A stretch of DNA of 45,174 bases from Jimgerdemannia flammicorona (Eukaryota). Each line of letters starts with the position of its first letter. The stretch's first letter is position 1. The DNA is taken from the NCBI GenBank assembly GCA_003990765.1, contig RBNJ01000064.1, positions 1-45,174 on the forward strand, in the 5' to 3' direction. The notes beneath the pieces were generated by a model. It had not been told where the DNA came from, did not search any database, and saw only the letters and a list, made by a program, of their open reading frames with translations. This document shows positions 4,728 to 41,300 of the stretch, one piece after another. The position numbers and the translations under genes were made by a program.

Positions 4728-4767
<40 letters not shown>
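4728..4767. repeat. (TA)n microsatellite forming the 3' tail of the minus-strand LINE
   Basis: About 20 TA units directly adjacent to the LINE 3' end (reverse complement ...AAGTAACTATAAA). Confidence 0.9.
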
Positions 4768-4773
<6 letters not shown>

Positions 4774-7700: not shown

Positions 7701-10624
7701 CTCATTTGTCCCATAATATCTTCTCATCTAACAAAGAGGAATTAAGGCACCAATGTCCAGACTCATCCCTACTTCCTCCAAAATGACTCTATCTTAGTAG
7801 TCTCCAATGATCAGATTACAGATACCACTCAGCCTCCAGCAACTTTCACACATCTAAGCCCCAGCAGTCTGCCATCAGAACCCAGTCAATCCTCATCCCT
7901 AGGCCACTCACTCAGTGCATATATATCTTCCAATCACCCCAGAACCTCCTGCCTGTATCTACTAGAGCACTCAGCCTTTCCACTTCCTCTTATATCTCCA
8001 GACCTCCAATCTTACCCTTAGCCCCTCTCTCTCTATCAGTTCTATCTACTAGCACATCTCAGACCATATTTAAGTCTCCTCCAAGCATATCCACTTCAGT
8101 CTCTGCAAGGGCCCCACTCTCTTGAAAATTCTTCACTCAATCTACATACTCACTCTATATAACAGAGCAGTAGTAGGAACCCACTGTAACTAGCTCCCAA
8201 CCTGGTTATATGTATCTACTCTCCCCAAACCAGTCTATCTCTCCAGCTCCTCATATCTCATATCTCCCCTCTGTCTCTCCAGACCAGAATCCCAATCTTA
8301 CCCCTCTATACTGTCTCACCTCTCTATTATTTCATTTATTCTAGTCTATACAAATCATCCTTACATCTGATATCCTGCAAAAGAAAGAGATCAGCCTTCA
8401 ATCTTTTCAGCTAAACAAAAATATTCTGACATCAAAATGAACTCCATAATCTATTTATATTCAATGAAAAAATATTAGTTGTATTATTCATAAGGAATTT
8501 TGTGAAATAACAAGTACATCCTCTATTGCTCTATATTTATCTCTACCTGTACTAAGTTCAGATTTCTTTCAGCAGCCCTCTCCTTCTCTTCAATCCTCTT
8601 AGTCTCTAATCCAACTAGTAGTTCAGTAAGTTCCCCATTCTTCTTTTTCTCAAAGTTCTTACAATACTTCAAACAGGCCTCCTGTCAGAGCTGTAGTTCA
8701 TATCTCTCTACCCACCAGAGGGCAGCCCACTCACCAGCAATAACTGCCAACTCTACCTCCCTTGCCTTGTCAACCTTATACTCTTCCTCTTCCAGAAAAA
8801 CTGTAAGTATCTCCACCTTCAGAGCCTCCACCACTCTATCCCCATACAAGATTTACATCTATTACTCATTACTAAGTACCCTCAGGTCCACTTTCCCTAA
8901 CTTCTCTGCTGCCAAGTTATTCATTATCTGATACATCTATTGGAGGTTACTTATCTCTCTTCTCTCCAGAGTCACTAGTCTCTCTTCTCCCAGTATTAAT
9001 ATATCAGTCTCTGTACTTGCCATCTTATCTCACTTCTCTTCAGGAATATCCACTAATTCATCCTCATCAGCTGCCACCACCTATCCCTCTTTCACTACCT
9101 CAGAAACTCCAAAGTATACTTACTGGGCCCCCTACATAGGTACATCCTCTGCCATCTAGCCCCTTGAGGTGGGACCTCATCTAATAAGAGGAGGGGTGTC
9201 CTCTCAGATCTCAAACATACCATCTATATATAGATTATTACTAGTTACCTCCTTGTCTACTTCTGGCCCCATCTCCACCTTTTCTCTATCTTCACTAGCC
9301 CAGACACTCACTTTGGCACCCCCTGTATCCACAATTCTACCAGCATCTCTCTTTATCTTACCCTCCAGGTTTACCAGCAGCTCCCTCTACCTCTTGTATC
9401 TTTGATATCTTTTCCACATCTTCTTATCTATGCAGATTTGCTTCTCATCCACCATCTCCAAATGTATTGACTCTATATATTCCTTCCAAGTCTTTGCCCT
9501 CCACTCTACTCTACTGCACCACTCAGCTCCTCCAGTACCTCCTACAAATCCTCTTCCTTCTCCTCACTCCCCTTTACCCTCATCATCTTACATAAGAAGG
9601 CCCCCCATACTATCACTGAAGGCCAGTCTCTAGTCTTCCCAGTAGCTTTCCTCTCAGCTAACTGAATCTGAATATCAATATCTCTAGTTCTGAATGAGAT
9701 CTCTTCCTAAACCCAGAACCCAACATCAACTATCTCTCTATACTTAGCTATAACTTTCTTGACTCTCCTCCTCATCTCCACAGCAGTCATCATAAGCACT
9801 TCTTTCACCAGAAGTTATACCACTCTGGAGTCCCACCTCAAGCAATATGCTATTGGAATATACACTTTTCCAACAGTCAGCCCAGCCTTCAGTGCATCCT
9901 CTAATGACTCAGTCTCCTCAAAGCCTATCTCTACTTCTTCCAATTCCTTCAGAAACTTTACAGATACTACTCTAGCCATTTACTTAGCAATCAGCCCCAA
10001 TATCATTTTTGCTATTACTACTAAGCTTCAGAAGTATAAGGTAACTATGAATTCTGAGATTGACTTCTTGAGTAATGGGGCTACTGTCAGTTCTGTTACA
10101 CTATCTACCAGATTACTGGACCTCATGCCTATTCCACAACTCAGTCTACTATCAGCAGTTCTATTTAGATTTTTTTCCAGATTGCCCATTATGCCCCCAT
10201 CAGCAGTCACTTTCCCAGCCACTACACCACCAGCCCTCCTACTCTGGCCCCCCAGAGGAGCTCCCCCCTTCTCCCCAGCAACTGCTTTTCCCTTCTCCAG
10301 CTCCAGCTATCTCTCCAGTTTCTTTGTCTGAGCTCTTATCTTGACCTTAGCAAAGGTCAGCTATCTATTCCTCTGCTGTCTTATTCCACCTCTTCTATCA
10401 CTACTGGCCCTCCATTCTCTCAGAGAAGCACTTGGCATCCTCAAGCCTATATCTTAATCCCACTCCACATGCTGCTAGTTAAAGGTACTGAGACTGCCCT
10501 GCTCTGTACACTCTCCAGAATACTTATTGCTCACTATATTATTAAAACCTTTTCACTGAAAATGTTGTTGGAAGTATTATCTGAAGTTTGTATAACCTAA
10601 ATATTATCAGAAAAAGATCTATTG
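4730..10624 (-). mobile_element. Full-length L1/Tx1-like LINE, degenerate (ORF1 about 10537-8480, ORF2 about 8480-4880)
   Basis: Reverse complement is colinear with 21-4059 including the 3' UTR; 5' end matches the 5' ends at 16997 and about 44855; 14-bp TSD TAAACTATCTGATA (4716-4729) / TAAACTATCTAATA (10625-10638). Confidence 0.92.
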
Positions 10625-12294
10625 TAAACTATCTAATACTTACAAAACTACTCTACTTACTAATCTCAGACTATAATAAGTCTGTTGTCTATTGTAAGTA
10701 TAACAATAGTTATATCTGAGCTCTCTTTAAAGATAATAGTACTATAAAGATCATACAGCTAAAATAAGACTACTATATTGACTGCAAATAGGACTTTGAA
10801 GCTATAAGTGAGATTATACCAGATATCTCTACTACTCTCTTAAGTAGAACCCCTCCTTTTCAAAATATAGAACATTATCAGAGTAATATTATTATCTGTA
10901 TATATATATAGAGAAATATTATACTTGATATACTTCAATATAGTATAAATATATAGTTTTATAAACTCTTAGTCCAGAACCTCATACTGTTAAACAATAC
11001 TAAAGAAGACTTACCCTTTATTGAGCCCTAAGAGATCTGGCTTAAATATCTATCAAAACAGATCAGTATCTGATCAATTCTTCTGTTCTATAAGCAACTC
11101 TCTCTCAGTTATATAAATAGTCAAATATTTATCTTATACAGTATATTGAATTGCATCAAGAATATATATAGTCATACTGAGAGTACTACTATACTAATCT
11201 ACTGTTTATTCTAGCAATCTGCTCAAAGATATGGATAATCCTGATAATGTTCCAGAGATCTCTGCCTAGGTATCATCAAAATGGTAACTGCTGCACTATA
11301 TGGAAAATATACAAATTATGCTTTATATGAGTACTATGCTAAATCAAGCCATCTAATCCATGACAAATATGTCTGGTATGCTTACATTAAAGAAGTTTTA
11401 ATGCCTTCTTAAAGACATCTATACTCATGATGACTTTACAGTCTATCTTACTGACAAAAATCTAGAGTTTACTATAATTCTATGTACTCTATATCTTGAT
11501 GATCTTTGGTTCCTTCTTCACAATCCTATATATGTGAATGATTTCTCTACAATTGATGACATTAAGGAATTGGTGAAGTTAGACCTATTAGGTCTACTAG
11601 AGTTCTGCATTGGTAATTCAAGTTATATACCAATTTGAGAACATCTTATAGAACCTAATAATTGCAAGTTACCCATGTTTTATATACTATCCAAGATATA
11701 CAAAGAGGCTTATATAGTATGACATCCTATCATTAGAGTATTTAACTCTCCTATAACTGAGATTTCACATTTTCTATCTTGCTTTCTCTATCTGTAGTTG
11801 GCCCATCTGTACCATAATATGAGTTATTCACATTACTCACCTCTATGTAATATATTAGAACTATTACAATTAGTTCAATCAGATTACCTTGATGTATCTG
11901 CTTGTTCTCTCATCACTACTAGAGATTTCACTATATTCTATACCAGGATCACACTAGATGAGTATATAGACTGCCTTATCTTTTTGTTGACCATAGTATT
12001 CCTCTCTGGCTCTTTGCTACTTGAAGCTATGTTAGACCTTATTTGTATAGTTATAACTTATACAACATTTATATCTACCATCAGTTCCTTCCACTCTATG
12101 ACTAGTATTACTATGGGTACTAATTGTACTCTAGATCCAGTCAATCTTATTGGTTTTACTCATAAGTTATATACCTTGCAAATGTCTAACCATTTGCTCA
12201 GCCAAGCTATTGTAGCTAGGCTAAAGTTCTGCCAGTTTATTGATGATTTAATTGTCTTTACACCTGTGATCATAGACTTGACCTTGATTTTTAG
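10625..12294 (+). mobile_element. Penelope-like element (PLE) reverse transcriptase, degenerate and 3'-truncated; continues from about 4590-4729 across the LINE insertion
   Basis: Ordered PLE RT motifs: TDKNL (about 11452), LPMFYILSKIYK..HPII..NSP (FY.LPKIHK..RPI, about 11670-11750), RDFTIFYTRI (D..SLYT.I), SITMGTNCTLDPVNL (G.AMG...P.LANL), FCQFIDD (R[YF]IDD). Confidence 0.85.
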
Positions 12295-12296
12295 TA

Positions 12297-12529
12297 CTGT
12301 ATCTCTTTGTTGGTATTGAAATGTAGCCAAATTTGGCTACAAAAAAAAAAAAAAATTTAAAAATTTTTTTAACTTAATATTTGAAGAAAATCTATGAAAG
12401 CTAGTAAAAAATTTTTTTTTTTTTTTTTAGTAAAATAATTTTTTATGATTTTTTTTTATTTTTATAAAATTTTAGTTACAGTTGTTTTTTGCAGCCAAAT
12501 TTGTCTGCAATACCATCTAAGAGATACTA
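12297..12529. mobile_element. Foldback MITE with TA flanks (Tc1/mariner-pogo-like)
   Basis: Imperfect TIRs of about 45 bp (TA-CTGTATCTCTTTGTTGGTATTG / CAATACCATCTAAGAGATACTA-TA), each containing the palindrome TG(T/C)AGCCAAATTTG(G/T)CT(A/G)CA; A/T-run interior. Confidence 0.7.
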
Positions 12530-12531
12530 TA

Positions 12532-15500
12532 TCCTGTCCAACAATGACTCCAGAGAGAGGGCATAAAGGATCAGTAATAGTGGATCTCTCTGTAGTACTT
12601 CTCTATATATGTAGGAGAAATGACTCCTCTCTATATCTATTCACTATAATAGCTGCCTGACTCCCCTATAACAGACTGATCAGCAATTCTCTAAACTCTG
12701 AGGGAACTCTTATTTGCTTCAATACTCTCTCTAGCCATATATGCTAGACTCTATCATAAGTCTTCTCTTGGTTCAGAAATACTAGTCAACCATCAACTCT
12801 AGTAGCATGAGCTTTCTCAATAATACCATAGATCTATACTGTCCCATCTCTTATCAAATGACCTCTGACAAAGCCCCTCTGCTCTGCCCCTAATACCTGC
12901 TGAGCCACTCCCTACAATCTAGCCACTAATATCTTCATCACTAACTTGTGATCTATATTCAGAAGTATAATTGGCCTCCAGTTCTTCCAATCCTCCCTCC
13001 TTTTCTTATTCTTATATAATAGAGCTATAAGCTCTAAGTATTGCTCTCTAATCTAGGTCTCTAAGCCAATAACTTCATCATATATCTATATTATCTCCTT
13101 CAGTACCACCTCCATACCAGCTATCTGCTTCCAAAAATCCCAAGATAGTCTATCTCTCCTAGAGCTATCTTCAGACTCATCATTGCCAAAACCCTACAGA
13201 CCTTCTCTCTCTGGACAGAAACTCTGAGATCACCTAGACCCTCTGTTGGGTCTGGGTGCCAATTCTCCAGATATCATTCAATGTCCAGTATATCTTCTCT
13301 ACCCTCCTTCTTACTCTTCAATTACTCTTATTGAGACCTCAGTTGACCCAAGATCTCTGGTATCTTAATTACCATATCCCCTACTTCATTCAATACTCCT
13401 TCCCATCACTGCCTCATCCTTCTCACCTAAAGCAGTCTTGATAGGAACTTTGTAGGTCTCTTCCTCTTCTCCAAGCCCTGCCATCTCAACTGAGTCACTA
13501 TTTCCTTCACCTGCAATTCCTTCTTCTGTCTAAGCAGCCTCTTCAATTCTTTCACCTTCTGCCAGATCTGTTAAGCCCTCCAATCCCCTTTCTTGCTATT
13601 GTCTAAAGATCCTGCCCACCTCTCCAGTAGCCTCTCCAACCTCTATGAGGCCTATCTTATATGACTCCTCCTCTAAGTACCTCTTCTCCTCCCAGCCTCA
13701 CTCTAGAACTACTGAGCCTCAGATTTCAAATACTACCAATAATTCCCAATCTCCAAACTCTGTGCCCTTCAGCTAATAATCCTGTACTAATATCCACTAT
13801 TCATTTTTTCTATAAGATATGTTTCTCCTATAATAAAGTATTTAGATATTAATGTCCAGATCTCTCTCTACTTCCCCCAAACCTCCTACAGTCTAGCAAA
13901 CTCCAGTTATCAGACCAAAGACACCAAACTATCTCAAGAGAGCTCTAGATATCCTCTCCCCAGTACTCAGCAGTCAATATCCAGTCAATTCTTGATCCTA
14001 GCCATGAGTATAGACTCTGTGATCTCTCTATCCAAGATACCCTATATCTACCAGTAAGCTCAATCTTCCAATCTCCTCCCAGTCTTCCATTCCCCCACCA
14101 CTATCTGTCATCTTCCTCTCTCCATCAGTCCTGTTCAGCTGTCCATTACATATAGTGTTCCCAAATAAATTTAATCAATTCAAATTGAATTAAATTGAGA
14201 GTAATTTAAATCAAATTAAATTAGGGATTTTTCAATTCAAATTAAGTTTGAATCAAATTGAGTTTGAATCAAATTGGGATCTAATTTGAATTGAAATTAA
14301 AAGTTAAACTTTAAAATACAATAACTTGATTAAAATATATCCAAATTTGAAGAATTTTAGCTCATTGGATTTGTCTTAATAAGGTGAAAACAGTATAACA
14401 AAGATTATTAAATTTGAACATTTTTCTGTCAAGTTATTGAATTTTAAAAATTTAGATTTAATCAAAATTCAAATCAAATTGGACCTTGATTTGAATTGAA
14501 TTGAATTGAATTGAATCAAATTGGGCCTCAATTCAATTTGTTGGGAGCACTAATTACATATCATATTAAAGTTGTCTCCCAGACAGTTGATCTTCTCTAC
14601 TACTATAATACTAGTATCTTGTAGTTCCCTTATCTACTCTACATACTCCTCCCTTTCTACTGGGCAATAATATGACCCAATAGTCAAAAGGCTCTAGCCT
14701 GACCTCCTCTACCTCATACTACTCTACCCCCTTAATGTTCAATGTCCCCAATGTCTCTCTTGTCCTTCCTAACCAGAATTCCCACCTAACTCTACCACAT
14801 GACCACACCTCCCCATTCTCTTATCCAGTCTTACATATCCAAGCCAATATCATAGCCTATGTCTTACAATAAGAACAGATCTGCATCTAGTCCCTTCAAC
14901 CAGCTGAAAATATTCTGATATCTCATCATATCCCTCAAACTATTGATATTTAAAGAGAAGATTCTAGTTGTACTATTTATATTAAATGATGTTTAGAGAG
15001 TAAGCACCCACTTTATAATTCTATACTCACTATATTGCTAGCAACATCCAGATTCTGCTCTATCTCAATCTCATCTGTCTCTCCCTACTGAGCATCTAGT
15101 ACTTCCAAGATCTCCTGACAGTCCTCACTATCCACTGTCTCTATATTAGACCAATAGTTCTTGTACACTATCTGTCACTTCTCCAACCTCTTTCTAGATC
15201 TCTACAGATATACTATATACTCATTTGCAATAGTTAGAAGCACTACCTCCTTAGTATCATTCACCTCATATTACTTTATCTCTAATAAGCCCATCAATAG
15301 TTTATTTCAAAGCTTCTATATCATCTCCTCTCTTTGTAGAATCTCACCCCAATGTCTTTCACTAACTACCCTAAAATCTACCTTATCCAACTTATCTACT
15401 GTAATATTTATCATTACCTTTCACAGCCACCTCTCCTCTCCTATAGTCTTATCAATATCTAGGGCCACCTCCTGCCCCTCAACCCCTGGATCCCCCTCAG

Positions 15501-16997
15501 CATTCATTCTCACTGACTTATTCCAGTCATCCTTCAGTATATCCTGCAGCTTGCCAGTCTCCACCCCTCTAGTGGACACCCTATACTGCACTTAGGCCTT
15601 CTTGACCATCATTATATCCTTGGCCACTACACTCTGCTTAGAGCTTCCCCCCTCCTTCAGGGTCACCATGGGAGTCTCTCTCTTTTCTCCTACCCAAGTA
15701 CTTGCTCTTGATCTACCACCAATAGCAGTAGCCTCACCCTCTGCCCTCTCTCTCAGATTTGCCAATAGGTCTTTTTGATATTGCCTCTCTTATACTCTCT
15801 CCCAGGTAGCTTTATCCAGTTACACTCTTCTGCTATTCATAATCTCAACCACTATCCTAGCCTTGAACTTCCTCCAGATCAGCCACCTCTTCTCCACTAC
15901 TCCAGCCAAGTCTTCCAACATCTCTAGCAAGTCCTCCTCCTCTTCAGGTATTCTCTTTATCCTTGAGATCTTATACTCCACCAGTCTCTACTTTATTATC
16001 ACTGGTCAATTCCATTCTTTCCTTATATTCTCCTTGCTTGCCAGTCTAATCTGAATATCCATATCTCTAGTCCAAAACTCAGTCTCTTCTCAGACCTAAT
16101 AGCCAATATCTACCATATTACTATACTTCTTAATAATATCTACAATTAGCCCTCTGGTCACCTCCTTCTTCACTATGAATACAATCACTACTATCAGTTA
16201 TACTACTCTGGGGTCTCAATATAAATACTAAGCCATAGAGATTGCTACTCCTCCTATTACTACTCCTTTCTCCAATACTCTCAACATTAACTCCTCCTTC
16301 TTAAAGTCTACCTTCACTTCTTCTAATCTCTTTAAGAATTTCACTGAGGCTATTTCTTTCACCTCCTAAGTTAGAAGATTCAGAACTATTTTTGCTATAA
16401 CCACTAAACCTTGGAAGCACAAAGTAATCATAAATTTGAATACTGACTTCTTGAGTAATGGTACTACCACCAGACTCATTATACTATCAGCTAGGTCCTC
16501 AGACCTCATGCCTTCTTCCAGCCCAGTCTTACTATCAGCTATCATATCTGAATTTTTTTCCAGATTAGCAGTTCTTCCATCATTAGTAGTCCTACTCCCC
16601 CTAGCCCCTACTCCACCAGCTCTACCACCACCACTACCATGGGTCCCCTGCCAGGCCCTGCAGCTCTCTTCTTCTTCTTGCTCTTCTATAGTCAGCCCTC
16701 TAATCCAGTCATTGGATACTCTGCCTTGACCTTGTCAGCAAATCTCATTCTTTCAGATCTCTGCCTACTAGTCTCCACTCTTCTATCTTCTTATCCACCA
16801 AAGAGAGTGTCCAACAGGCTCTTCTCCAATCCATGACTCCTCTCTACATACTGTCAGTTGAATGTACTAGAGCTGCCCTGTTCTACATACTTCTCAGAAT
16901 TCTTATCAGTTGCTATATTATTATTACCTTTTCTTCAAAAATGAGTAAAAAGTATTGTCAGAAGTTTGTATAATCCAAATTATACTAGAGAAAGATG
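12532..16997 (-). mobile_element. L1/Tx1-like LINE of a related subfamily, 3'-truncated within RT (ORF1 about 16916-14970; ORF2 from about 14970)
   Basis: Reverse complement gives VLQRDPLLLILYALSLE at the left end, KNWRPI, APE start IFSLNI, ORF1 RFADKVK; 5' end CATCTTTCTC shared with other copies. Confidence 0.9.
14153..14552. mobile_element. Non-autonomous hAT-type MITE, copy 2 (400 bp), inserted in the LINE APE region
   Basis: TIRs TAGTGTTCCCAA / TTGGGAGCACTA; perfect 8-bp TSD ATTACATA (14145-14152 and 14553-14560). Confidence 0.92.
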
Positions 16998-16999
16998 AA

Positions 17000-18126
17000 C
17001 TATATATCTTATCCATTGCTTATTACTATTGTTTATTATTTAGTAATAATATAGTCTTATTATAGATTACAGGCTTATTTATTATTGTTATATAAGTATA
17101 TTTATAAGTACTGATATAGTTTATATACTATTTATTGTTATGATGGAATATTCTAAATAGATCTCAATAACCTCTTAAATCTGCTTAAATTTCACTATCC
17201 AGTCTTGATCTATACTTCTTTTTGCTCTTTGAAGAGGTATTCTTTTTATTATTCTTATCTATAATTTCTATAATTCTTAGTTCTGATAGGTTTATTAATA
17301 TATGTATAGGCTATATTAGTACTAGTGTAGGTATCATTCCACTTATCTTTAAAGTTAGTATAGATATTACTAGCTATATCATTAGGTTAGATATAGAGAG
17401 AATAGAAATTTCTATATAAATTTCCTACTTAGTCTCCTTGAACTAAATATTATGAGAGATAATTATTTAACATTTCTGTGAGTTTTACAGTCTATATACC
17501 ACTCTATCATATCTAAGAAATATATGCTTATTAGTCTTCAGCTCAAACTTAACTTTATTGCTACCTTTATTTTGAATATAAGTCTTACTTTTAAATATAT
17601 ATAGATGTGAGATATCAGACTTATATCTACTCTACAGTTCTTTATAAATAAGATCAGCATTATTCCTAGATTGTTAATTATTATCAGATTTCTTATTTAG
17701 AGCTTAAGAAATATAATGATTTTAGGTAAATACTACTATATTTACTACTTTGGCCCAAAAAGAGTATAACAAGTTAGCTATATTTATTATTATTCAAGCT
17801 ATCTCTACTATTACAATATATTGACTTAATATAGTTAGTTTATAAGGTTGGAGCTATTATATAGATTGACTTGAATCTCTAGTTATTTTATCAAAAGTAA
17901 TAAAATATTTAATAATTTCTCTATTTTATATAATATAGATAATTTAGACAATTTCCTTAATAGAATATATTCTTAAGTATAGTATTAATTTGATAATTTT
18001 AGTTGATTTCTTTTTGAGTATATTGTATAGTAAGAGCTGTTTTCTTATATTTATAATTTCTATATAATGATCTCTATATAGTAGTTTTCTTATATAATTT
18101 TTGTATAACAATCTGATATTATGTAT
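17000..18126 (-). mobile_element. Ty1/Copia integrase remnant (left part; split by the Gypsy element)
   Basis: Reverse complement translates to LYSFWAKVVNIVVF (LP..FWAEAV.TAVY), SDISHLYIF and KFELKTNKHIFLRY..YRL. Confidence 0.7.
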
Positions 18127-18536
18127 TGTCACATAGTGGTCGCTGAGTCCTTCAAATATGCCAGATTCTCTTCAAAGTATATCTCTTAGACTAACTCAAG
18201 TTGTTATAAGCAAGTTCTTATTGGAGTGCCTTCCCAAGGTCTTATAGTCCTCAAACTTCTTATCTTTAACTGTCTTGTTATCTCTTAGATTGCTTGCAAG
18301 GAAGTATGTGTAAGTGAAACTGGAACTGACTTTATTTCAGAGGAAATAAGAGAGGTATTTATACAAAATATAATTCAATAGTTGCTAATATATAAAGCTA
18401 AATATAAATTCCAATAACTAAAACTACTAAGTTCCAGGGCTGGCATTATTTAGTATTACATCAAAATACTAGTGCTGGAACAATTTCGCATCACCTCAGA
18501 ATGCCAGTGCTGGCATTATCCAGTGTTACAAAGAAC

Positions 18537-19340
18537 TTAGAGCAGAAAGTTCAGGATTATGGGGGCTTCATCATCATCATTACTGAAGGAGATGAGATCC
18601 GTGAATTCATCATTTTCGCATGCTTCGATGTTATGCGGGATGATATCATTAATGATGTCATCATGTTTGGCTATGGTAGGGAAATTGGGGACAAGGTCTG
18701 GAGCTCTCCAGTCTATGAGGTTCTCTTCCACAAAATAAGGAACAAATGTGGAATCTTAGAGAGATCTAACCTAGATGCTTGGGCCTTAGAATACTGAGAT
18801 CAATCCTTGCAGGAATTGATCTGGGTTGTCCTGAAGGATAGGGTGTCAGAAGTCTTCTACTTCTTCACTGTTGAGGGTGATAGTAGACTGGGCTTCTGTA
18901 GCCACCCTGGCTTCTAGTGCATTAATATGGTGGGATGATAGGTCTCTGAAATCTGAGACTCTAACATACTCCAAGTTGGGGATTGACCATGGTGCATGCC
19001 TGAAGATCTGATGGATCTTTCTAGCTGTCCTTGTTTCATATATATCCATGGGAGTGGCATCTTGTAGCTCTTGGGTGCTGGCCTGGGGGAACTCCCAGCA
19101 GAGGAGGTTTTCTATTTTGTACTCCTGCCACATTTGGAGGCATTCAGTAGCAATGGTGATCCTTGTTTCCATTTCGCAGCAGTAGAGGATAAAGTGATAA
19201 GGGTCTGCAGTACCCAGGTTGACGCTAGGAGTCCTTCTTGAGTGGGTCCTCATGGCTCTTCTGATGTCTTGGAACATCCTTTCCTCAACCAAGATACCTT
19301 GGTAATTCCTTGACCTTGAGGTTTGGTGAGCAGTAGGCAT
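18537..19340 (-). pseudogene. LTR-encoded ORF of about 267 aa, unknown function (four premature stops in this copy)
   Basis: ORF-track pieces 18846-19340 and 18537-18731 are in the same frame; three of the four internal stops are sense codons (TGG, CAG, CAA) in the other LTR copies. Confidence 0.8.
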
Positions 19341-19420
19341 TTTATTTGTGGTAAGTCTTTGAGCTATTTTGGGATTGGTGGTTCTTGTTGGTTGCTGCTA
19401 CTGTAGTTCCTTGATCCTTC

Positions 19421-19427
19421 TTTTATA
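19421..19427 (-). promoter_or_regulatory. Putative LTR TATA box (TATAAAA) about 87 nt upstream of the LTR-ORF ATG
   Basis: Conserved in all three copies (19421-19427, 26550-26556, 36982-36988). Confidence 0.55.
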
Positions 19428-19582
19428 TTCTTCAGGATGCTTATGCTGTGGTCACAATGACTCACAGTTGGTCATCATTGCTCATCTCATATGCCATATG
19501 ATCTTCTTATGCTCTGATCTGGTGGCTTATAAGGAAAGGCTGTCTCCTGTGCTGATGTCATCATTCTGGGGTCACCGTTACA

Positions 19583-19594
19583 TCTTCCTCCTGA
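19583..19594 (-). other. Polypurine tract
   Basis: Element strand reads AGGAGGAAGA immediately before the TGTAAC start of the 3' LTR. Confidence 0.85.
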
Positions 19595-19895
19595 ATAAGG
19601 ATCTTCCTGAGCATCCTTATTCATTGGTCCAGTCCTGAAAAATTTGCTGATCCCATAACCTCTGGCAAGGGGTCAAAAACTAGTGTTTATGGGCTGGTAT
19701 CTTCTCTTTGTATTTTGGCATGATGGTGAAGAGTCGCTCCCTTTATATAGAGCAAGAGCCTGATTCTGATCTTGATCAATCAGTTGATGGTTCGAACTCC
19801 TCTGACTGCAAAAGTCTCATGGATGAGTAGTTGCCAGTACCATATCCCTTAGAGAATGATCCAGACAGATAGCCTGCTGGTCACAGGACATGCTG

Positions 19896-22800
19896 TTACA
19901 ATTCGTGGACTAGAACCTCATGGGCAGTCATCATGTTTTGCTTCTCTTGTATAGGTTTGTAGTACTTCTTAAGTCTGTTCCTATGTACCATGGTAGGCAG
20001 TATGGTCCCTGGGATTTTTCTAAGCCAGAAGGTAGTTTCCTTGATATCTTGCATGTAGAAGGATTCTTCCCATTTAGGCTCCAGTTTTCGTGACCATGAG
20101 ACTTCTACTATATTTCGATATAGTAGAACCTTTTCTCCAATTCGGATGGATTCTAGGGCCTTGTGATTCTTTTCCACATTCTTCCTTATCAGTGCTTGTG
20201 ACTTGGTGATGTAATCTTCAGCCTTCTTCCTGATTTGGTGTAGTCTCTGGATTTCTGCATCAACCCATCTCCAAGTTAGGTCTAGATTTGTAGCTGAGGT
20301 TCCATTAGAATCTTCTTCTCCAAAGAGCAGCTCTCTTGGGGTAAAATGTGTGCTCTGTGACCATATGTCTCGTAGAATGGGGAGGGCAGTTGGGAGATAG
20401 TTATCCCAATTCTCATATGTCTCTGAGATCTTTGCTAGGATGTTCTTAAGGGTCTTGTTGGTTCTCTCTGTCTGTCAATTTCCTTAAGGGTGGTATGCAG
20501 AGGTCTTGATGTGCTGGATCTTGTATTTCTGGTACATTATCTCATGGAATCCATTGACAAATTCTGTGCTGTAGTCTGTTGTGATTTGCTTTGGTGTCTT
20601 GTAGCAGCAGATGATTTCTTGGTGTAGGAAATCAGCTATAGAGAGGGCATTGGCTTCTTGTAATACTCCTGCCTCTATTCATTTGGTGAAGAGGTCTACA
20701 ATAACTATAATATAGCAGTTTCCTGATAGTATTACTGGTAGTGGTCCAATGATATTCATTGCAACATGATGGAAGAGGATAGGCTCAATTCTTGATGATC
20801 CAGGTGTCTGGTCTTGCTGATCTTGTTTCTGTTTTTGGCACTTGTCACACTCTTTGACAAATTGGCACAGGTCTTCTTCCATCTTGGGCCACCACATGGT
20901 TCTTCTTGCCTTGTTGTATGTGTTGGTTCCTCCTAAGTGTCCTTGCTCATATACTTCCTTTATTACTTGATACTTCTTGTGTTTAGGTATTACTAGCTTT
21001 CCTCCTTTTCTGAGTGTAGTGTTGTCTAATTCAAACTGTTTCCAAGTCTGGTTGATGATGGTGATTGTCCAGGGTTCGAGGTGGTTGGGCATCTTCTACT
21101 GCCCAAGGTAGCTGATTAATCCATAGTATGTATAACTCCTTATTCATGTTGAATAGTCTTGATGGGGATGTTTTGGGGTGTCCTTGAGAGTGCATCAGCA
21201 TTGGTGTTGGTCTTTTCTGGGCAGTGCTTGACAGTACAGTCATATTCTTGCAGCCTGTAGATCTATCTGGCATATATTCCTTTGGGGTTCAGAGCGTGGA
21301 ATAGCCAGGCAAGAGCAGAATGGTCTGTTTGAATGGTGAAGTGTTTTCCGGCTAGATAGTAGTGGAACTTATCTACTGCCCAAACTACCACTAAGCATTC
21401 AAGCTTGCATGACTTGTAGTTCTGTTCCACTCTGCGAGTACCTCAGCTTGCATAGGAGATGACATATTTATGTCCATCTTTCTTCTGAGCTAGGACCACT
21501 CCAAGTCCTATAGCACTCACGTCTGTCTGCAAGATGAATTCTAGGCTCCAGTCTGGTCTTCTGAGGATGGGTGCTTGGGTCAACCTGGTCTTGAGTTCAT
21601 TGAAGGTTTCTTGGTGCTCCTTGGTCTATTCGAATTTGGTCTCCTTCTTCAGTAGCTCATAGATAGGTGCTGCAATGTTAGAGTATCCTTTGATGAATCT
21701 TCTATAGTAGCTGGCCAGTCTAAGGAAGGCATGGACTTCTGTGGTTGTTCTAGGTCTTGAGTAGGCTGCAATAGCCTCAATCTTCATGGGGTCTGTGTGG
21801 ATTCTGGTCTGGTTGATGAGGTGTCCTAGGTAGGTGATTTCTTGAGCTGCAAACTTGCATTTCTTGGGCTTGATGTAGAGGTCATGCTCCTTGAGCCTCT
21901 TGAGGACTAGCTGTATGTGATTGACATATTCCTGTGCAGTGTTGCTGAAGATGATCACATCATCAACATAGACAAAGAGCCATTTTCTAATCTCATTGCT
22001 GAAGACTCTGTTCATCATTTGCTGGAAACTTACTGGGGCATTGCACATTCCAAATGGCATTCGCAGATAGATATAGGTGGTATCAGATGTGATAAAGGCT
22101 GATTTCTCACTGGTATCTTGAGTGAGACTGATCTGATGGAAGCCTGAGAACAGATCCAAGGTGGTGTAGTATTTGGCTTCGCTTCTAAGGGTGGTAAGGA
22201 TTTCTTGAATATTCGGTAAGAGCTGCCTATCCTTCTTGGTGATGGCATTGAGTTTCCTGTAGTCAATGCAGAGTCTTGATACAAACTCTCCAGACTTGCT
22301 TCCTTTCTTTAGGACAAGGACAATGGGTGAGGCCCAGGGGCTGATAGCTTGCTTGATGATTCCAGCTTCTTCCATTTCCTTGAGTTCGGCTCGCAGCCAC
22401 TCTCTGTAGGCAGGTGGTATGGGTCTGGCTTTCTGGTAGATAGGCTTGGTATCACCAGTGTCAACTTCATGGTGGTACTTGGGTTCTTGATTGTGGATAT
22501 CCCTAAAGTCTGTAGCAAGTACTTCTTCGTTCTGGTACAGGATCTTGAGAAGTTGTTCCTCCAGGGGAAAGTTTTCTCCAATGGTATATGTGTGCTTGTT
22601 CTGATCCTTGTTTTTCTTGTACTCAAGTTCAGTAATCTTGGTGGTGGCATAGGCTCCTCTTTCAGTAGATCCAAAGCCTTGTTCTCCTCTCTTGGTCTTG
22701 ATAAGTTCAGTGGCCTCTATGATCTTGGGCTTCTTGATTTCGTGGATCAGCATCTGGCCAATCCTGTCATACTTCTTGACTTCAAAGGGGGTGGTGTGGT

Positions 22801-25135
22801 TGTGATTTCTGACTATGAGAAAAATCTCACCAGTGTAATCAGGGTCAATTACTCCTCCTTCAACTGAGATTTCGCTTTTGGCCAGACTGCTCCTGGTCTT
22901 GACTCCAATTCCAGTGTCAAGTAGAGTAGTGGTCTGTGGTTCAAGGATAGTGTCTTGGATGCTGGCAAGGTCCATTCCTATGGCTCCTTTAGTCTTATAT
23001 TCTGGGATCTTGGCTTCAGGGTGAAACTTCTTGACCTTGAGGGTAATGTCTAATTCTTGTTCCTCCTCATCATCACTGTCAGCTTGAAGCTCTGGGGGCT
23101 GGTCATCTTCTTCAGCTTTCCTTTTTGCTTTGGCAGCTTCTTGCTTATATTTCTGTTGGTGGATTTTCCTGACTTCGCTGATACAGGACCAGCAGTCATT
23201 CAGGTGTTCGGAGCAGTACATTCTAGTACTATGGGGGCATCTTACTTAAGGGGCATACCCGTCAATGATCTTGTTATACTACTGCTCATCTGTGAACTTG
23301 GGTGTCTTGTTCTTGTTCTTGTTCACTGAGTGCATGAAGACCTCTGTGTCTTCTTCATCTCCTTCCTTCATATCTGACAGGACTCCTTTGTGGACATTGA
23401 TAGAAACTCATACTTTTCTTCCTCTATAGTTGATCTGCATCTTCTGAGCATTGAGGTCAATGATGGCCTTGGCCTTGTGAAGCCATTGGTTGCCAATGAG
23501 GATGTCATAGTTGGTGGCACTTGTAACAATCACATCTACTGGGATGGTAGCTCCTCTTATCTTGATGGGGACTTCTCAGATTTTGCCAAGGGGGGTAGCT
23601 CATATACTGTCTGCTGTGACATAGACCATCTTGGTGGACTCTTCAATGTCTCAACCTAGGTAATCAATTGTCTTCTTGCTCATGAGGCATCCTCCAGCAC
23701 CAGTATCAATGATGGCATCAAAGATACAGTCTTCGATCTGGTAGGGGGTATAGGCTGATGTCTTGCACTGGTCTTTGGATTCTTCACCTGAGTTCTCAGA
23801 TTCTTCTTGTGCATTGTGAGCTTCTACAATCTTGTACTCTTGATTCTTGACAGTAGTTGTAAGTCCTACTCTCAACTGCTGTCTGAAGGCAGGGACTTCA
23901 GCTAGCTGCCCAAAAGTGGCATTGACCTTCTGTTCCTTGAGGTCCTTGTAGATATCATACTGATGGATCTTGGTCTTGTGCAGCTTCTGTTCCTTCTTGC
24001 TCTCACTTTCTCCTGAGACTGGAGTAGTGCCTTCGATAATTTGGCAGGCAGCCTCATCTAACTCCATGTCTTGATCAATCTCCTCGTATTGGGTCTTGCT
24101 TTGAATAGTGACAGCTGGAGTCTTTTTTGGTCTTCCAACTGGCTTGCTGTTGCTCTTCTTGTCATAGGGCTTGGACTGGGTTCTGGTACCTTCAGTAGTA
24201 GGGTAGAATTCGAGCTCCTCATAGTATTCTTCATCATCAGTGTCACCGATCTCCTCAATGACTACTGCATTAGTTTATTCTCTAGTTCTGCTAGCATTGC
24301 TTGGTTGGGCTTTGCATCTTATTTTGGTCATGCAACTCTTTGCATAGTGGCCTTCTTCTCTATATCTGAAGCATGTGATATTGCATTCTTCTGTAGCAGC
24401 TGCAAACCTCTGCACTGGTCTCCTGTTGGCACTTTGGACTTCTCTAACAACATTACCAAGGTGTGCAGTCATCTTGGTGAACTGCTTGGCAAGTTCTTCC
24501 ACTGGGTCAGCTTTGGCTGTCTTTGGGGTAGGTGGGGTTGGTTGTCTGTTTACAACTGTGGCAGGTAAGATACTAGTTGGCTTTGATGGCTCCATCTTTA
24601 TGTCAGTTATTTTATCCATTGAGTGTTTGGCAGGGTGTCTGGTAGTCCAATATCTCTGTGCAAAGACCACTTTCTGATCAAGGGTCAGTGCAGCTGAGGT
24701 AGACCAGATTGCTAGGGCAATTTCAGGGTGAACTCCTTTGAGGAAGGTTGAATCTGCTATTTGTTTCTTGAGGTGGTCATCATAGCCGGCCAAGACAATC
24801 TAGTGGTAAATTTGGATATAGAATGAGTTGAGATCTTCACTAAGTCCCTGGTAGATAGTATTGAGTTAATTCTTGAGAGCTTGCTTGATCTCTTCGGTAT
24901 AATATGTTGTTCTGAGGAAGGCCTTCATGTTGGCAAGTTTGGCTGCACCAGCATCAGCAATAGTGGCTGCATTGAACTTGTCTCTGGCAGATCCTCTGAG
25001 ACCGACTGATAGAAGGGCCAATTGAGCATCCACACCAAGGGCTCGTATGGCAGTGAATTGTTCAAAGTCTTCAATGAAGATCAGGATTGACTCTTTAGTA
25101 GTATATCCATAGAATATGAGGGGGCACATTTCCAT
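19896..25135 (-). pseudogene. gag-pol polyprotein: Gag with CCHC knuckle, aspartic protease, dUTPase, RT, RNase H, integrase
   Basis: TCFRYREEGHYAKSC; AIIDTGAGGC; SPWASPIVLV, RLCIDYRKLN, LDLFSGFHQI, MPFG, YVDD; LQTDVS..GLG, TDHSAL; GHLG...CDKCQ; KLEPKW...VHRNRLK. Fragments starting at 25135, 24793, 24067 and 23221 share one frame; a frameshift lies near 21270. Confidence 0.95.
22664..23041 (-). CDS. dut: Trimeric dUTPase domain within pol
   Basis: All five motifs in order: AIGMDL, RSSLA, GGVIDPDYTGEI, DRIGQM, RGEQGFGST. Confidence 0.95.
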
Positions 25136-25234
25136 CTTGTCTTAAATTCTTGCAGGGGTGACTCTTGTAGTCAGGGTAGTTGTTGTGGGAGTTGTTCATT
25201 TTTCAGCTTGAAAGTGAGGGATTCGTCTTGAATC

Positions 25235-25252
25235 ACCAGCCAAAGGGCACCA
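25235..25252 (-). other. Primer-binding site
   Basis: Element strand reads TGGTGCCCTTTGGCTGGT, 3 nt inside the 5' LTR; cognate tRNA not identified. Confidence 0.8.
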
Positions 25253-25255
25253 AGT

Positions 25256-26711
25256 TGTCATGTAGTGGTCGCTGAGTCCTTCAAATATGCCAGATTCTCT
25301 TCAAAGTATATCTCTTAGACTAACTCAAGTTGTTATAAGCAAGTTCTTATTTGAGTGCCTTCCTAAGGTCTTATAGTCCTCAAACTTCTTATCTTTAACT
25401 GTCTTGTTATCTCTTAGATTGCTTGCAAGGAAGTGTGTATAAGTGAAACCAGAACTGACTTTATTTCTAAGGAAATAAGAGAGGTATTTATACAAAATAT
25501 AATTCAATGGTTGCTAAGATATAAAGCTAAATATAAATTCTAATAACTAAAACTACTAAGTTCCAGAGCTGGCATTATTTAGTGTCACATCAAAATACTG
25601 GTGCTGGAACAATTTCACCTCACCTCAGAATGCCGGTGCTGGCATTATCCAGTATTACAAAGAACTTAGAGTAGAAAGTTCAGGATTATGGGGGCTTCAT
25701 CATCATCATCACTGAAGGAGATGAGATCTGTAAATTCATCATTTTCATGTGCTTCGATGTTATGCAGGATGACGTCATCGATGATGTCATCATGTTCAGC
25801 TGTGGCGGGGAAATTGGGGACAAGGTCTGGAGCTCTCCAGTCTATGAGGTTCTCTTCCACAAAATAAAGAACAAATGTGGGGTCTTGGGGAGATCTAATC
25901 TGGATGCTTGGGCCTTAGAATACTGAGATCAATCCTTGCAGAAATTGATCTGGGTCATCCTGAAGGATAGGGTACCAGAAGTCTTCTACTTCTTCGCTGT
26001 TGAGGGTGATAGTGGACTAGGCTTCTGTAGCCACTCTGGCTTCTAGTGCATTGATACAGTGGGATGATAGGTCTCTGAAATCTGAGACTCTAACATACTC
26101 CAAGTTGGGGATTGACCACAATGCATACCTGAAGATCTAATAGATCTTCCTAGCTGTCCTTGTTTCGCATATATCCATAGGAGTGGCATCTTGTAGCTCT
26201 TGGGTACTGGCCTGGGGGAACTCCTGGCAGAGGAGGTTTCCTATTTCATACTCCTGCCACATTTGGAGGCATTCGGTAGCAATGGTGATTCTTGTTTCCA
26301 TTTCGTAGAAGTAGAGGATAAAGTGATAAGGGTCTGCAGTACCCAGGTTGATGCTAGGAGTCCTTCTTGAGCGGGTCCTCATGGCTCTTCTGATGTCTTG
26401 GAACATCCTTTCCTCAACTGAGATACCTTGGTGATTCCTTGACCTTGAGGTTTGGTGGGCAGTAGGCATTTTGTTTGTAGTAAGTCTTTAAGCTATTTTG
26501 GGATTGGTGATTCTTGTTAGTTGCTGCTACTGCAGTTCCTTGATCCTTCTTTTATATTCTTCAGGATGCTCATGCTGTGGTCACAATGACTCACAGTTGG
26601 TCATCATTGCTCATCTCATATGTCATATGATCTTCTTGTGCTCTGATCTGATGGCCTATAAGGAAAGACTGTCTCCTGTGCTGATGTCATCATTCTGTGA
26701 TCACTATTACA
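25256..26711 (-). repeat. 5' LTR (1456 bp) containing the LTR ORF (26469-25666)
   Basis: Direct repeat of 18127-19582; ORF pieces 26137-26469 and 25666-25860 are in frame. Confidence 0.97.
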
Positions 26712-36099: not shown

Positions 36100-39096
36100 T
36101 AATTCTTTGATCTATATCACTTAATGTATAAATATACACTATCTGGAATAATAAACAACTCCTTCTTCTCTCTACTTCTTATTTACAATAAAGATTATAA
36201 GTCCTGTTTAATAGCTAAAAAAATACCTCTTCTAAGACTATATACTAGTCTATACCAAGATATTACAAATGACAAATTAAGGAGCCAATACAAGTATGCC
36301 AGTCATAGTAGACATAAGTACTCTCAGAATAAGTATGATGGTCATAGTTCTCATAGTAAGTATAAACACAGCCAAGAGATTAATCCTAATCTTTGATGGC
36401 AAAGATTACACTATTTGGATATTTCATATAAATAATCTTCTGAAGAAGTATGAATTGATAGAGTATATAAAACTATAAGTATAAACAATTGCTAAACATT
36501 ATGTGAGATTATATTCATATTATCAAACTAGTAAATAAAGCTTATAATATATATTATGATAGTTTATAATATATGAGAGACTCTATATAATTATCATATA
36601 TAAGCATTCTTATTAAATAGATTTTATCTGAAATTATAATTATTTAATCTATAAATAAAATTCAAAGAGAGAATTTATAAATATATATATCAATCATATT
36701 AATAATCTAGTAAATTAGGTAAATTTTCTAAGTATACCACTAGAGTATATTAGTAATAAAGATAAGATTCTAGTCCTTATAAGAGATCTCTCTGAAGTAT
36801 ATAATATTATAATAGTAGCTATATATTATAACAGTGACCCCAGAATGATGACATCAGTACAGAAGATAGTCTTTCCTTGTAAGCCACCAGATCAGAGCAC
36901 AAGAAGATCATATGGCATACAAGATGAGCAATGATGACTAACTGTGAGTTAATATGACCACAGTACAAGCATCCTGAGGAATATAAAAAAAGGATCAAGG
37001 AACTGCAGTAGCAGTAACCAATAAGACCCATCAATCCCAAAATAGCTCAAAGACTTACCACAAATGAAATGCCTGCTACTCACCAAACCTCAAGATCAAG
37101 AAATCACCAAGGTATCTTAGTTAAAGAGAGGATATTTCAAGACATCAGAAGAGCCATGAGGACCTGCTCAAGAAGGACTCCTAGTGTCAACCTGGATACT
37201 ATAGATTCTTATCACTTTACTCTCTACTGCCATAAAATGGAAACAAGGATCACCATTGCTACCGAATGCTTCTAAATATGACAGGAATATGAAATAGAAA
37301 ACCTCCTCTGCTGGGAGTTCCCACAGGCCAGCCCTCAAGAGCTACAAGATGCCACTCCCATGGATATATGTAAGGCAAGAATGCTAAGAAGATCCATCAG
37401 ATCTTCAGGCATGCACTATAGTCAATCTTCAACTTAGAGTATGTTAGAGTCTCAGATTTCAGAGACCTGTCATCCTGCCATATCAATGCACTAGATGCCA
37501 GGGTGGCTACAGAAGCCCAGTCCACTATCACTCTCAATAGTGATGAAGTAGAAGACTTCTGGCATCCTATCCTTCAGGACATTCCAGACCAATTCCTGTA
37601 AGAATTGATCTCAGTATTCTAAGGCCCAAGTATTCAGGTTAGACCTCCCCAACACCCCACATTTGTTCTCTATTTTGTGGAAGAGAACCTCACAGATTGG
37701 AGAGCTCCTGATTTCCCCACCGAACATGATGACATCATCCTGCATGAAGTACGTGAAATGTATGATGATAATGAATTTACAGACCTTATCTCCTTTAAAG
37801 ACATCCTGATCTCTGATGATGAAGTCTCCATAGTTCTGAACATTCTGCTCTAAGTCTCTTGGTTACACTGAATAATGCCAGCACTGGCATTCTGAGGTGA
37901 TGCAAAATTATTCCAGCACCAGTATTCTGATGTGATATCAAATTATACCAGTATCCTAAACCTGTACAACCATCAGTGCCAACCCTGGAACTTAGCAGTT
38001 TTTCCTATCCTGGCATTTTATTTTAGTTATTGAAATTTATATTTAGCTTTATATCTTAGCAACTATTGAATTATATTTTATATAAATACTTCTCTTATTT
38101 CCTCTGAAATAAAGTCAGTCAACTCAGTGTAATACATATAATCCCTTGCAAGCAATCTAAGAGATAACAAGACAGTTTAAAGATAAGAAGTTTGAGGACT
38201 ATAAGATTTTGGGAAGGTACTCCAATAAGAACTTACTTATAACAAACTTGAGTTAGTCTAAGAGATATACCTTGAAGAGAATCTGGTATATTTGAAGGAC
38301 TCAGAGACCACTATATGACAATATAAGAGTAGAAAACTCATAAACTATATTTACATAATAATAAACCTTATCTACAAAGAGATGTATCAAGGAAATGATG
38401 ATAATAGTGATGATGAAAAATTATTCTACAGATCATATAGATGAGGCAAAAAGTACTAATAGAGTCAAAAATGTAAATCTAAGTTTGACAGAAACTACTA
38501 TTACTATAGTCAGTATAGATATATACAATAACTACTATTATAAAGATATATAAGAAAAATAATAAAAATAAGTATAGAGGTTAGTATTAGTAATATGGAA
38601 GTTATAGAAAGAATTGAAAGAATAGCAAAGAGTAATATAATGTAAATACTGCCAAAACTAATAATAACTAAGGTAGAGGTATATTTTATATATAAGTAAT
38701 ATATATTAAGTATTTGAAGAAGACATTATCTATATCTATATCTAAGTAATATATTTTTAAGTTACATAGTAAAAAATGATGATATCAAGATAAGTAAAGT
38801 ATGTACTATACTAATATAGCTAATAATAATAATATATAACTTTTAGATTTAGATACTATGTAATATATAATAGTTCTCTGAGAATGATTCTCTTCTTTAA
38901 GTATTTGGTATTAATTAAATTAAGTAACAATAATATTATATATATTTAAGAAAGAGAAAATATCAGTATATATCTTCATGAAATATCACAGAGCCTATCA
39001 GTACTTTTTAGAATATACTATATACTCTAAAGATAAGAAGAACTTCTTTTTAATCAACAAAATAATAGTCTATAGTAATAAAGAAATTATATTATA
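36100..39096 (+). mobile_element. Ty1/Copia 5' part (LTR end, PBS at about 36195, gag, protease), interrupted by the solo LTR
   Basis: GATTATAAGTCC PBS remnant; IFDGKDYTIWIFHINNLLKKYEL (ORF 36296-36478); colinear with 29035-30550 on both sides of the solo LTR. Confidence 0.8.
36827..38320 (+). mobile_element. Solo LTR of the dUTPase-Gypsy family (1494 bp) with LTR ORF 37069-37853
   Basis: Reverse-complement homologue of 18127-19582; termini TATAAC (TG mutated to TA)...TGACA; 4-bp TSD ATAT (36823-36826, 38321-38324). Confidence 0.95.
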
Positions 39097-41300
39097 TATA
39101 ACTGACAACACTGGAATAAGGAAGCAATAACAACAGATCTTGTAATTATCTTGATCAGATGATAACTCCAATCTTATAGTATAATAATCAGATGATACTA
39201 TCTAATGACCCACTCAATCCATCAGGTGATCTGACCAAAGAGAGCAATAATAATCTGAGCTAAAATGAAGGCCATGCTATTTAAAGAACCTAGAACCAGT
39301 GTGTTATGTAAGAAAAATCAGAACAAATAAGAATACAATACCTCCTTCTCACTACTCTAACCAGACCTCCTACTATAGTATTTCTTTACTAAGTCTGAAG
39401 AGCCTTATTCTTGAAGCCATTGAAATGGCTATCTAGTGCCCTAATACTACTGATCATCTGAACTTCTATACTGAAGACCTTAGATATTTCATCAATTACT
39501 GCTATATAATGATCCAGCAGCTCAAGAATACTACTGACCAAATGACTCTCTAGTATGACTATAAAATTGAACAATGAAACCCAAGAAGATGACCAGGAAG
39601 ACCTTATTGCTGAACTATTAACCACCAACTGGCTGATAAAGAGAGCTCTTCATGTCTACCAAATCTTCTATCATGTATCCTGGGCTATAGCTTATTTACC
39701 ATTAAGCAAATAGTCTACCTCATTACTAAAGAAGTCAATTAGATAGAAGTTGAAGTTGCTGATTATATTGGGAGCAACTATATTACTATAGCAAACTAAA
39801 CCCACTCTGCCAGACTTCTATACTATCTCTCTCTAAGACAACCATTAAAGCCATCTGATAAGTCTTATGGAAATCTTTGAAGACCCACCTATTACTATTG
39901 AAGCATCTGCAGGAGTTACTATAATCACCCACTACTCTATCAGTTATATGTTACATTACATTATATGGGAACTAAACTAAGAAGTCCCAGAAGCTTCTAT
40001 TTAAGAAGAAGAAGAATACTAAAACTCTATTATCAAAACTGCTGTGATATCTCAAGATGCCCAAACTGATGAATTCTAAGAAGAAGAAGAATAACAAAAA
40101 ATCTACCAGTCTTCAGTCTATCTTCAAGCTGTGTATGAATTAGAAAACATCATTGAGGATAATTGGTCACTATTCTATCTCCTCATCTCTTAGCTAGCAC
40201 TTTCTCTCTTTGAAGAGTAGTATGATGAAGTCACAATCTAATAAGGTAATTTACTTGCCACTGGTGAAGAATACCATGTCTTTTAAGGCAGAGATCAATA
40301 TTCCTTACCAGTAGTATAGAATAAAGATATTTCAGCCTTACTCAATTTAGTTAGTATCACCCTTTACACAAGTGTATTATAGTTTAGCTAAATATAGAAT
40401 AGCCCTCCCATTACCCAAACATTCTTTGCCAGTAGTATAGAATAAAAGTATTCCAACCTTACTCCATTAGTATAGTTTTTGCCACTGATATACTACTACT
40501 GATAAACCAATAGTATATCCAGATCTTACCACTAGAGCATAGTAGAAATATGTATAAATACCCCCAAAGACAAGAGTGAATAAATCTTAGTCAGATAGTT
40601 TAAAGTAAAAAGGATTTACAGAAAAATATACTACCTCTAAGAGTAAAGGGATTACTCTTACTGTCTCAGAAATTGATACATATAAAAATTATTACAAAAC
40701 TTAAGATATAAACTACTACTACTATAAAAATCATCACAAAAAGATATAAGTCAATTAGTTTAGAACTGCTACTACAGAAATCAGATACAAGACCTCAAAC
40801 TATACAAAATTCTAGATACAAAATTGCCAACTTATTAGGAAACTTCACTAAGAACACCAGGATAACTGTCAGCATACCAGAATCTGTGATATACATATTG
40901 TCACCTTTTGCCATTCTGAACAACTAGTCATGTAACCAATGACTCATAATATGTAAACTTCAATAATATATGAACTCCAACTTAATGCAAATAAGAAATA
41001 CAAACAAATCAAATAGTAGCTGAACTGAATATTGAGCCAGAACATTATTAGATAAAAAGATAAATAATATATAAGATAATCAAGTAGTATATTAAGCTGT
41101 ACATTCTACAAGTAGGACATACATATTATATATAATAATATACTCAATAAGAGCAAAAGTATATAGTTTGAAGAATGATAAGGAGATTATAATAATGTCA
41201 AAAAATGAGACAATCTTTATATAATTAATAGTATACTAAGTAGTATAAAAGTCTCTATATATATAATAACTAATGAGAGGACTCATTTGAGCCTATAGAT
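39097..41300 (+). mobile_element. Second, diverged ORF-in-LTR retrotransposon: putative LTR about 39097-40668 plus eroded internal start
   Basis: Begins TATAAC like the family-A LTR; TATTTAAA box at about 39278; degenerate ORF about 39338-40285 homologous to the LTR ORF; ends ...TCTCA followed by a PBS-like TGATAC. Confidence 0.65.

Follow-up and report, generated by a model that had tools for sequence, protein, structure and literature searches.

The arrangement of MMTV sag, in which a gene lies within the LTR itself, has its other known examples chiefly among a handful of retroviruses, and it is present in a Ty3/Gypsy element of Jimgerdemannia flammicorona, where it carries a new protein family. 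In the stretch of DNA analysed here (the window, 45,174 nucleotides), a sense-strand frame of 267 codons plus a stop takes up 804 of the 1456 nt (55%) of the LTR, from LTR position 243 to 1046, and it recurs in a solo LTR. This frame is confirmed as what decay has left of a real gene for a protein, lying wholly within the LTR, residence in the LTR being seen directly in the window copies. A sequence-only reading of the window had proposed a conserved protein-coding gene there, with a 267-codon frame covering over half of each 1456-bp repeat, and both proposals stand: the gene has three subfamilies and occurs in two LTR families at the same offset. The explanation as a whole, which joins this real LTR gene to weaker steps concerning expression and function, is held with about even confidence.

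The carrier is an 8.6-kb element on the minus strand of the window (Table 1). Its two LTRs, each of 1456 bp and 93.2% identical to one another, have TG...CA ends and are flanked on the outside by the 4-bp target duplication ATAC; the LTR-LTR BLAST alignment extends one base past these bounds. Together with a purine tract and a candidate primer-binding site, these are the termini of a Ty3/Gypsy element. The internal domain order (gag-PR-RT-RH-INT) is likewise that of Ty3/Gypsy (Metaviridae), the interior is colinear with the database polyprotein P0011, and an Integrase_H2C2 match is present (Pfam, 2.8e-17). The nearest polyproteins with the same dUTPase order, as found by the pol search, are 38-45% identical, and a dUTPase between protease and RT is also described for the bdelloid Juno and Vesta families in the accessible text of PMC5408684. 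In the ESM Atlas, the gag part of P0011 led to clusters most frequent in Streptophyta and Basidiomycota, which is a weak lead to the host. Rfam and tRNA scans of the whole window gave no match. The 5' and 3' LTRs differ by 93 transitions and 6 transversions, while the solo LTR, which belongs to the same family (family A), is 12-15% diverged from them.

The background of the window is 22-30% GC, with a CpG observed/expected ratio of 0.07 overall and 0.01 in positions 1-17000; within the element interior, 26 of the 34 remaining CpGs stand in TCG on the plus strand. A repeat of about 4 kb is present in two head-to-head copies, 73.6% identical, at 21-4040 (+) and 4768-8793 (-). They have GC skews of about +0.5 and -0.5, with an RT domain (PF00078, 5.8e-10) at 2211-2615 (+). 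Just ahead of the first copy, a poly(A) run stops at base 20, and another lies at about 44326-44357. The two repeats probably derive from retroelements of a different class that have since decayed. At 27492-27833 (+), weak protein similarity (E 9e-4) to P0017, on the protease side of that polyprotein, may mark another decayed Ty3/Gypsy fragment.

Table 1. Features of the LTR gene, its carrier element and the related LTRs, in window coordinates.
Feature	Position	Strand	Remarks
5' LTR, family A	25256..26711	-	TG...CA ends; ATAC target duplication; 93.2% identity to 3' LTR
Candidate primer-binding site	25236-25252		TGG start; 3 nt past 5' LTR
Internal region: gag (CCHC), protease, dUTPase, RT, RNase H, integrase	19583..25255	-	at least 7 frames, broken
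dUTPase domain	22664-23017	-	Pfam 1.4e-21; between protease and RT
RT	21821-22309	-	RVT_1 4.7e-33
Purine tract	19583-19592		adjoins 3' LTR, upstream in sense direction
3' LTR, same element	18127..19582	-	TG...CA ends; ATAC target duplication
Solo LTR, family A	36827..38320	+	1494 bp; ATAT target duplication on both sides
LTR gene, 5' LTR copy	25666..26469	-	premature TAG111, TAG151, TAA185; pseudogene
LTR gene, 3' LTR copy	18537..19340	-	premature TGA165, TAA185, TAG190, TAA195; pseudogene
LTR gene, solo-LTR copy	37069..37853	+	5 premature stops; 1-nt deletion near 37384
TATAAAAG, TATA box, candidate gene promoter	19420..19427	-	motif; LTR position 156; 87 nt before ATG
Three tandem 35-bp repeats, palindromic core	18434..18530	-	directly past gene stop, before downstream TATA box
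Equivalents of the 35-bp repeats	~25563-25659, ~37871-37988		other two family-A LTRs
TATAAATA, TATA box, candidate genomic-RNA promoter	18356..18363	-	motif; LTR position 1220; 3/3 copies
AATAAA	18331..18336	-	motif; LTR position 1247; sole poly(A) signal kept in 3/3 copies
Family-B solo-LTR-like insertion	39092..41153	+	~2.06 kb; ends approximate; nested in decayed Ty1/Copia copy
Subfamily-B gene copy	39338..40235	+	ATA-decayed start; at least 12 stops and at least 1 frameshift; LTR position 242

All four copies of the gene in the window, three in family-A LTRs and one of subfamily B, are pseudogenes, dead relics of a frame that is still open in database proteins. The 3' LTR copy matches the intact P0005 at 68% identity over 276 aligned positions covering all 271 residues of that protein, and the 5' LTR copy matches P0004 at 84% identity. 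Every premature stop of the three family-A copies falls at a position where the intact relatives have Gln or Trp, and a single C>T or G>A change accounts for each; the reading of the stops as C>T/G>A hits was correct, and the LTRs themselves show the same excess of transitions. Against the element LTRs, the solo LTR carries indels of 3, 9, 18, 12 and 1 nt within the frame, which reproduces the net 18-nt difference and the single 1-nt loss already reported. The seven indels outside the frame measure 1, 31, 22, 3, 1, 1 and 2 nt. On the other strand, facing the acidic-tail region, there are two open frames at 18408-18797 (+) (129 aa) and 25675-25926 (+) (83 aa); they are taken as by-products of composition, because the database relatives all match the sense frame only.

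One of these stops has a history of its own. Codon 185 is TAA in all three family-A copies, as had been pointed out together with the sense codon of a diverged homologue; it is Gln in all six subfamily-A relatives that cover the codon, and the equivalent residue is Glu in P0132, P0133, P0134 and P0136. As the stop is common to the element LTRs and to a solo LTR 12-15% diverged from them, and a triple independent hit is unlikely, the truncation would be inherited, and the family-A lineage probably went through two or more transpositions while its gene was only 184 codons long. Such transposition implies that the full protein was dispensable in cis, or else supplied in trans. With all four window copies dead and TAA185 suggesting movement in the truncated state, the idea that the gene survives in every solo LTR is not borne out.

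Relatives of the protein are few. When the 5' LTR copy was used as query, a word-based search returned five among 327 candidates, one of which, the open P0005, spans the whole frame. A profile search of 1.84 billion representative proteins gave six matches at E <= 0.001, five of them real, the discarded one being P0135 (E 6e-4), a spurious hit to a repetitive protein over 23 profile positions. This exhaustive search recovered only the family itself, with no relative longer than 342 aa and none fused to another protein. A word search with the family alignment found 12 proteins at E <= 0.001 among 8000 scored candidates, a count that excludes broken relatives since gene callers give open frames only, and 7 of the 12 are pieces of 87-215 aa; the relatives are encoded on short contigs of 567-4848 nt. 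They form three subfamilies: A (P0005, of 271 aa, with P0004, P0006, P0007, P0008, P0131 and P0138), B (P0136, of 325 aa, with P0134, P0137 and P0139) and C (P0133, of 342 aa, with P0132). P0005, P0136 and P0133 are open at full length, one for each subfamily, and the subfamilies are 32-47% identical to each other. All four relatives that reach the N-terminus at full length begin with Met-Pro, and 23 invariant residues are spread across the core of a layout common to the three subfamilies.

No domain had been recognised in the frame at the outset, and the database searches agree. No Pfam family was matched by P0001 or P0002 at E <= 1, nor by P0005 and P0132-P0134 at E <= 0.1; within Pfam, neither MMTV_SAg nor the known extra ORFs of LTR retrotransposons (e.g. 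ATHILA ORF-1 and gag-like families) matched the family, and a PDB profile search gave nothing at E <= 10. On these comparisons, the family is new, previously unnamed and without known relatives.

The second LTR family (family B) shows that residence in the LTR is not confined to one lineage of repeats. Its insertion is recognised as such because it is missing from a paralogous Copia stretch (34279-34576); it opens with TATAAC at 39097, as does the decayed family-A solo LTR, and its right end is blurred through AT-rich decay. Decayed Ty1/Copia copies lie at 34259-34627 (-), 35254-35550 (-) and 38929-39091 + 41154-41272 (+), called from Pol_BBD (1.2e-7) and a copia-type gag (0.002), the last being split by the family-B insertion. 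Within that insertion, tblastn with P0136 matches the gene copy at E 4e-49 and 2e-24, and the diverged homologue noticed earlier is therefore real, a dead subfamily-B copy. The gene starts at LTR position 242 in family B and 243 in family A. At the protein level P0136 also finds the family-A LTR (E 2e-13), within the frame of the gene, whereas blastn between the A and B DNA reaches only E 0.037. In two families that can no longer be aligned as DNA, the gene thus occupies the LTR at an equal offset. A comparison of the two promoters by aligning the upstream regions was dropped, as the family-B sequence is too decayed.

Is the gene under selection? In active elements it very probably is, of the purifying kind: three subfamilies only 32-47% identical that nevertheless remain open and alignable, with the same start and layout, would hardly be expected unless the protein were selected. 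In the window itself, the one signal favouring a coding frame is the excess of indels in multiples of three when solo and element LTRs are compared, 4 of 5 inside the frame against 1 of 7 outside (one-sided Fisher p ~0.045). The Nei-Gojobori dN/dS is 0.30-0.32 in the solo comparisons and 0.57-1.2 in shifted control frames, but it is also 0.31 for the 5'/3' LTR pair, which diverges neutrally, and the window dN/dS thus carries no selection signal; it was rejected as a test because its baseline is fixed by the 93:6 transition bias together with codon composition. The counts by codon position were dropped as well, those of the solo comparisons (42/21/55 and 37/24/54) having the same shape as those of the neutral pair (22/14/26). 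At the DNA level the frame is not better conserved than its flanks (15% divergence versus 8-13%).

From the order of its motifs, the LTR can be divided tentatively into its usual parts. The gene probably sits in U3, because the repeats, TATAAATA and AATAAA that follow it stand in the usual order of enhancer, promoter and poly(A) signal, the last 27 nt downstream of TATAAATA (LTR positions 1247 and 1220), which is how a U3 normally closes before a short R. The core motif of the 35-bp repeats has nine matches over both strands of the window against 1.14 expected, and six of its seven distinct sites lie in family-A LTRs; in the solo LTR the repeat region carries extra sequence, through insertions of 31 and 22 nt. 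Upstream of the gene, TATAAAAG is kept in 3/3 family-A copies, and LTR positions 156-242 are free of ATG in both element LTRs, with 7-8 ATGs upstream of position 156. With a little less than even confidence, these motifs suggest that the gene has its own promoter in TATAAAAG and ends at the poly(A) signal of the LTR, each LTR being a self-contained unit of about 1.1 kb. Transcription would then start from TATAAAAG, with a leader of about 55 nt without ATG, and would stop at the LTR's own poly(A) signal; with both signals in place, every LTR, solo ones included, would yield an mRNA of about 1.1 kb.

The predicted protein shows a marked gradient of charge. Per 30 residues, the charge of P0005 falls from +4 at its N-terminal end to -7 at the other, and P0136 likewise passes from basic to acidic; the N-terminus of P0133 is near neutral and its tail is acidic. 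In all three subfamilies the last 60-100 residues are strongly acidic with bulky hydrophobics embedded. Kyte-Doolittle scores over 19 residues peak at 0.59-1.07 in five family members, and by this measure none of the five has a transmembrane segment or a Sag-like membrane anchor. Two AlphaFold2 runs, both of low confidence (mean pLDDT 35.7, then 46.7), suggest a core of helices from about residue 18 to 185, together with a small beta hairpin and a tail without order. Foldseek with this low-confidence model against PDB and BFVD gave no match at E <= 0.001, all listed matches having TM <0.2, and the ESM Atlas neighbours of P0005 offered no lead (best feature score 0.83, best TM 0.33). The product is pictured, at the same even confidence as the explanation to which it belongs, as a soluble protein of about 270-340 aa, encoded by an accessory gene of Ty3/Gypsy elements that carry a dUTPase, with an N-terminus that is basic in A and B, a mostly helical conserved core and a variable acidic tail.

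Acidic activation regions typically mix acidic residues with bulky hydrophobic ones. The protein would accordingly be a nuclear regulator that raises LTR transcription, possibly via the palindromic repeats. By analogy with foamy-virus Tas, this role of nuclear activator is offered as a tentative one, and it is ranked first on composition only, namely the basic N-terminus of subfamilies A and B and the acidic, hydrophobic tail of all three; the acidic-hydrophobic tail and the 35-bp repeats on the U3 side would be compatible with an activator binding its own repeats. It is equally tentative that each LTR is a full cassette (promoter, ORF of 270-340 aa and poly(A) signal) for an element-specific regulator, which would make this the first LTR-borne gene to be described outside retroviruses.

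Other explanations concern either the reality of the gene or the way in which it is expressed and used. The frame could be a non-functional relic, a captured host fragment or an absorbed internal ORF, open by chance in young copies and picked up by gene callers. The window copies are indeed all dead, with one stop common to three of them, the dN/dS within the window is uninformative, and the family is small and drawn from short contigs with many partial members. Such a relic would nonetheless not be expected to keep an open full-length frame, a start and a layout through three subfamilies of that divergence, nor to show protein similarity that outlasts DNA similarity and in-frame indels skewed to multiples of three; moreover, the 1.84 billion representatives include no cellular relative that could point to a donor gene. 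This explanation is very improbable. Another would take the TATA box at position 156 as the genomic-RNA promoter, placing the gene in a very long R/U5 leader as the first cistron before gag. That box does precede the gene, which is on the sense strand and ahead of gag in the 5' LTR. An R of about 1.1 kb would be needed, however, the 5' LTR AATAAA at position 1247 would have to be ignored, gag would have to be re-initiated after an 804-nt frame, and the standard succession from U3 to R is what the repeats, TATAAATA and AATAAA show beyond the gene, all of which makes the long leader improbable.

Nearer to the proposed cassette is the same U3 gene expressed in the manner of MMTV sag, from a subgenomic mRNA in which a donor in the leader is spliced to an acceptor before the ATG of the 3' LTR; on this view no solo LTR would express the gene. 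Splicing is the usual route for retroviral 3' accessory genes, and an AG-ending stretch about 20 nt 5' of the ATG and a GT-containing stretch just past the candidate primer-binding site can be picked out by eye as possible signals. The ORF3s of LTR retrotransposons also come typically from spliced messages, as far as the accessible text of PMC5408684 goes. A spliced message has no need of the TATAAAAG box kept in 3/3 copies or of an ATG-free leader, and we consider this route rather unlikely. The same grade is given to a real gene whose product does not activate the LTR and instead counters host silencing or serves particle or integration biology, which puts such a role about level with that of the activator. 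The repeats have been hit hard by the host, as judged from the CpG ratio of 0.07 and the 93 transitions against 6 transversions, and acidic disordered tails are also found in histone-binding and chaperone proteins; nothing in particular tells against this explanation, and the searches yielded no domain or fold that would back such a role. The preferred explanation remains a U3 gene with its own promoter and, more tentatively, an activator as its product.

How does this gene compare with known systems? The likeness to MMTV sag is one of arrangement: a sense frame, accessory and non-structural, fills most of a long LTR (~1.3-1.5 kb) and is present in each LTR. Sag, however, belongs to a vertebrate retrovirus and is a membrane glycoprotein of type II, whereas the protein described here has no hydrophobic segment or Pfam match and its carrier, a Ty3/Gypsy element, lacks env. 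Nef of HIV and SIV, and Tas (Bel1) and Bet of foamy viruses, are likewise accessory, encoded at the 3' end and reaching into U3 (the U3 placement being drawn here from motif order), but they overlap only the edge of the LTR, while this gene lies wholly inside it. Tas binds DNA and activates its own LTR, through an activation domain that is acidic and C-terminal. No sequence or fold match to foamy Tas/Bel1 or to HTLV Tax was found in Pfam, in PDB sequences or by Foldseek with the low-confidence model, and by sequence the LTR gene is a member of neither the MMTV sag nor the Tas family. Closer to the carrier in kind are the lineage-specific extra genes of Ty3/Gypsy-like elements, such as ORF3 of the bdelloid Juno and Vesta, ORF1 of the plant Ogre, and the ORFs of Athila/Tat. 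The plant ORFs are internal, between the LTRs. The bdelloid ones lie between pol and LTR according to the accessible text of PMC5408684; the present gene differs in being part of the repeat itself. A literature search, conducted outside subscription journals and supplements, found LTR-resident ORFs described for retroviruses only and for no other LTR retrotransposons.

The usual view of an LTR is that of a control region without coding function, and a solo LTR is seen as an inert scar or an enhancer. Selection on a gene within the repeat would alter this picture, as each element would hold two copies and each recombination between LTRs would leave one behind in the resulting solo LTR. The dating of elements from their LTRs presumes neutral divergence of the pair, and part of the LTR is here coding. 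The family extends the short list of retroelement accessory genes, and it provides a non-retroviral parallel to MMTV sag for questions of origin and expression. If the proposed cassette is true, solo LTRs scattered through the genome could still supply a factor that works in trans to activate or protect the active elements.
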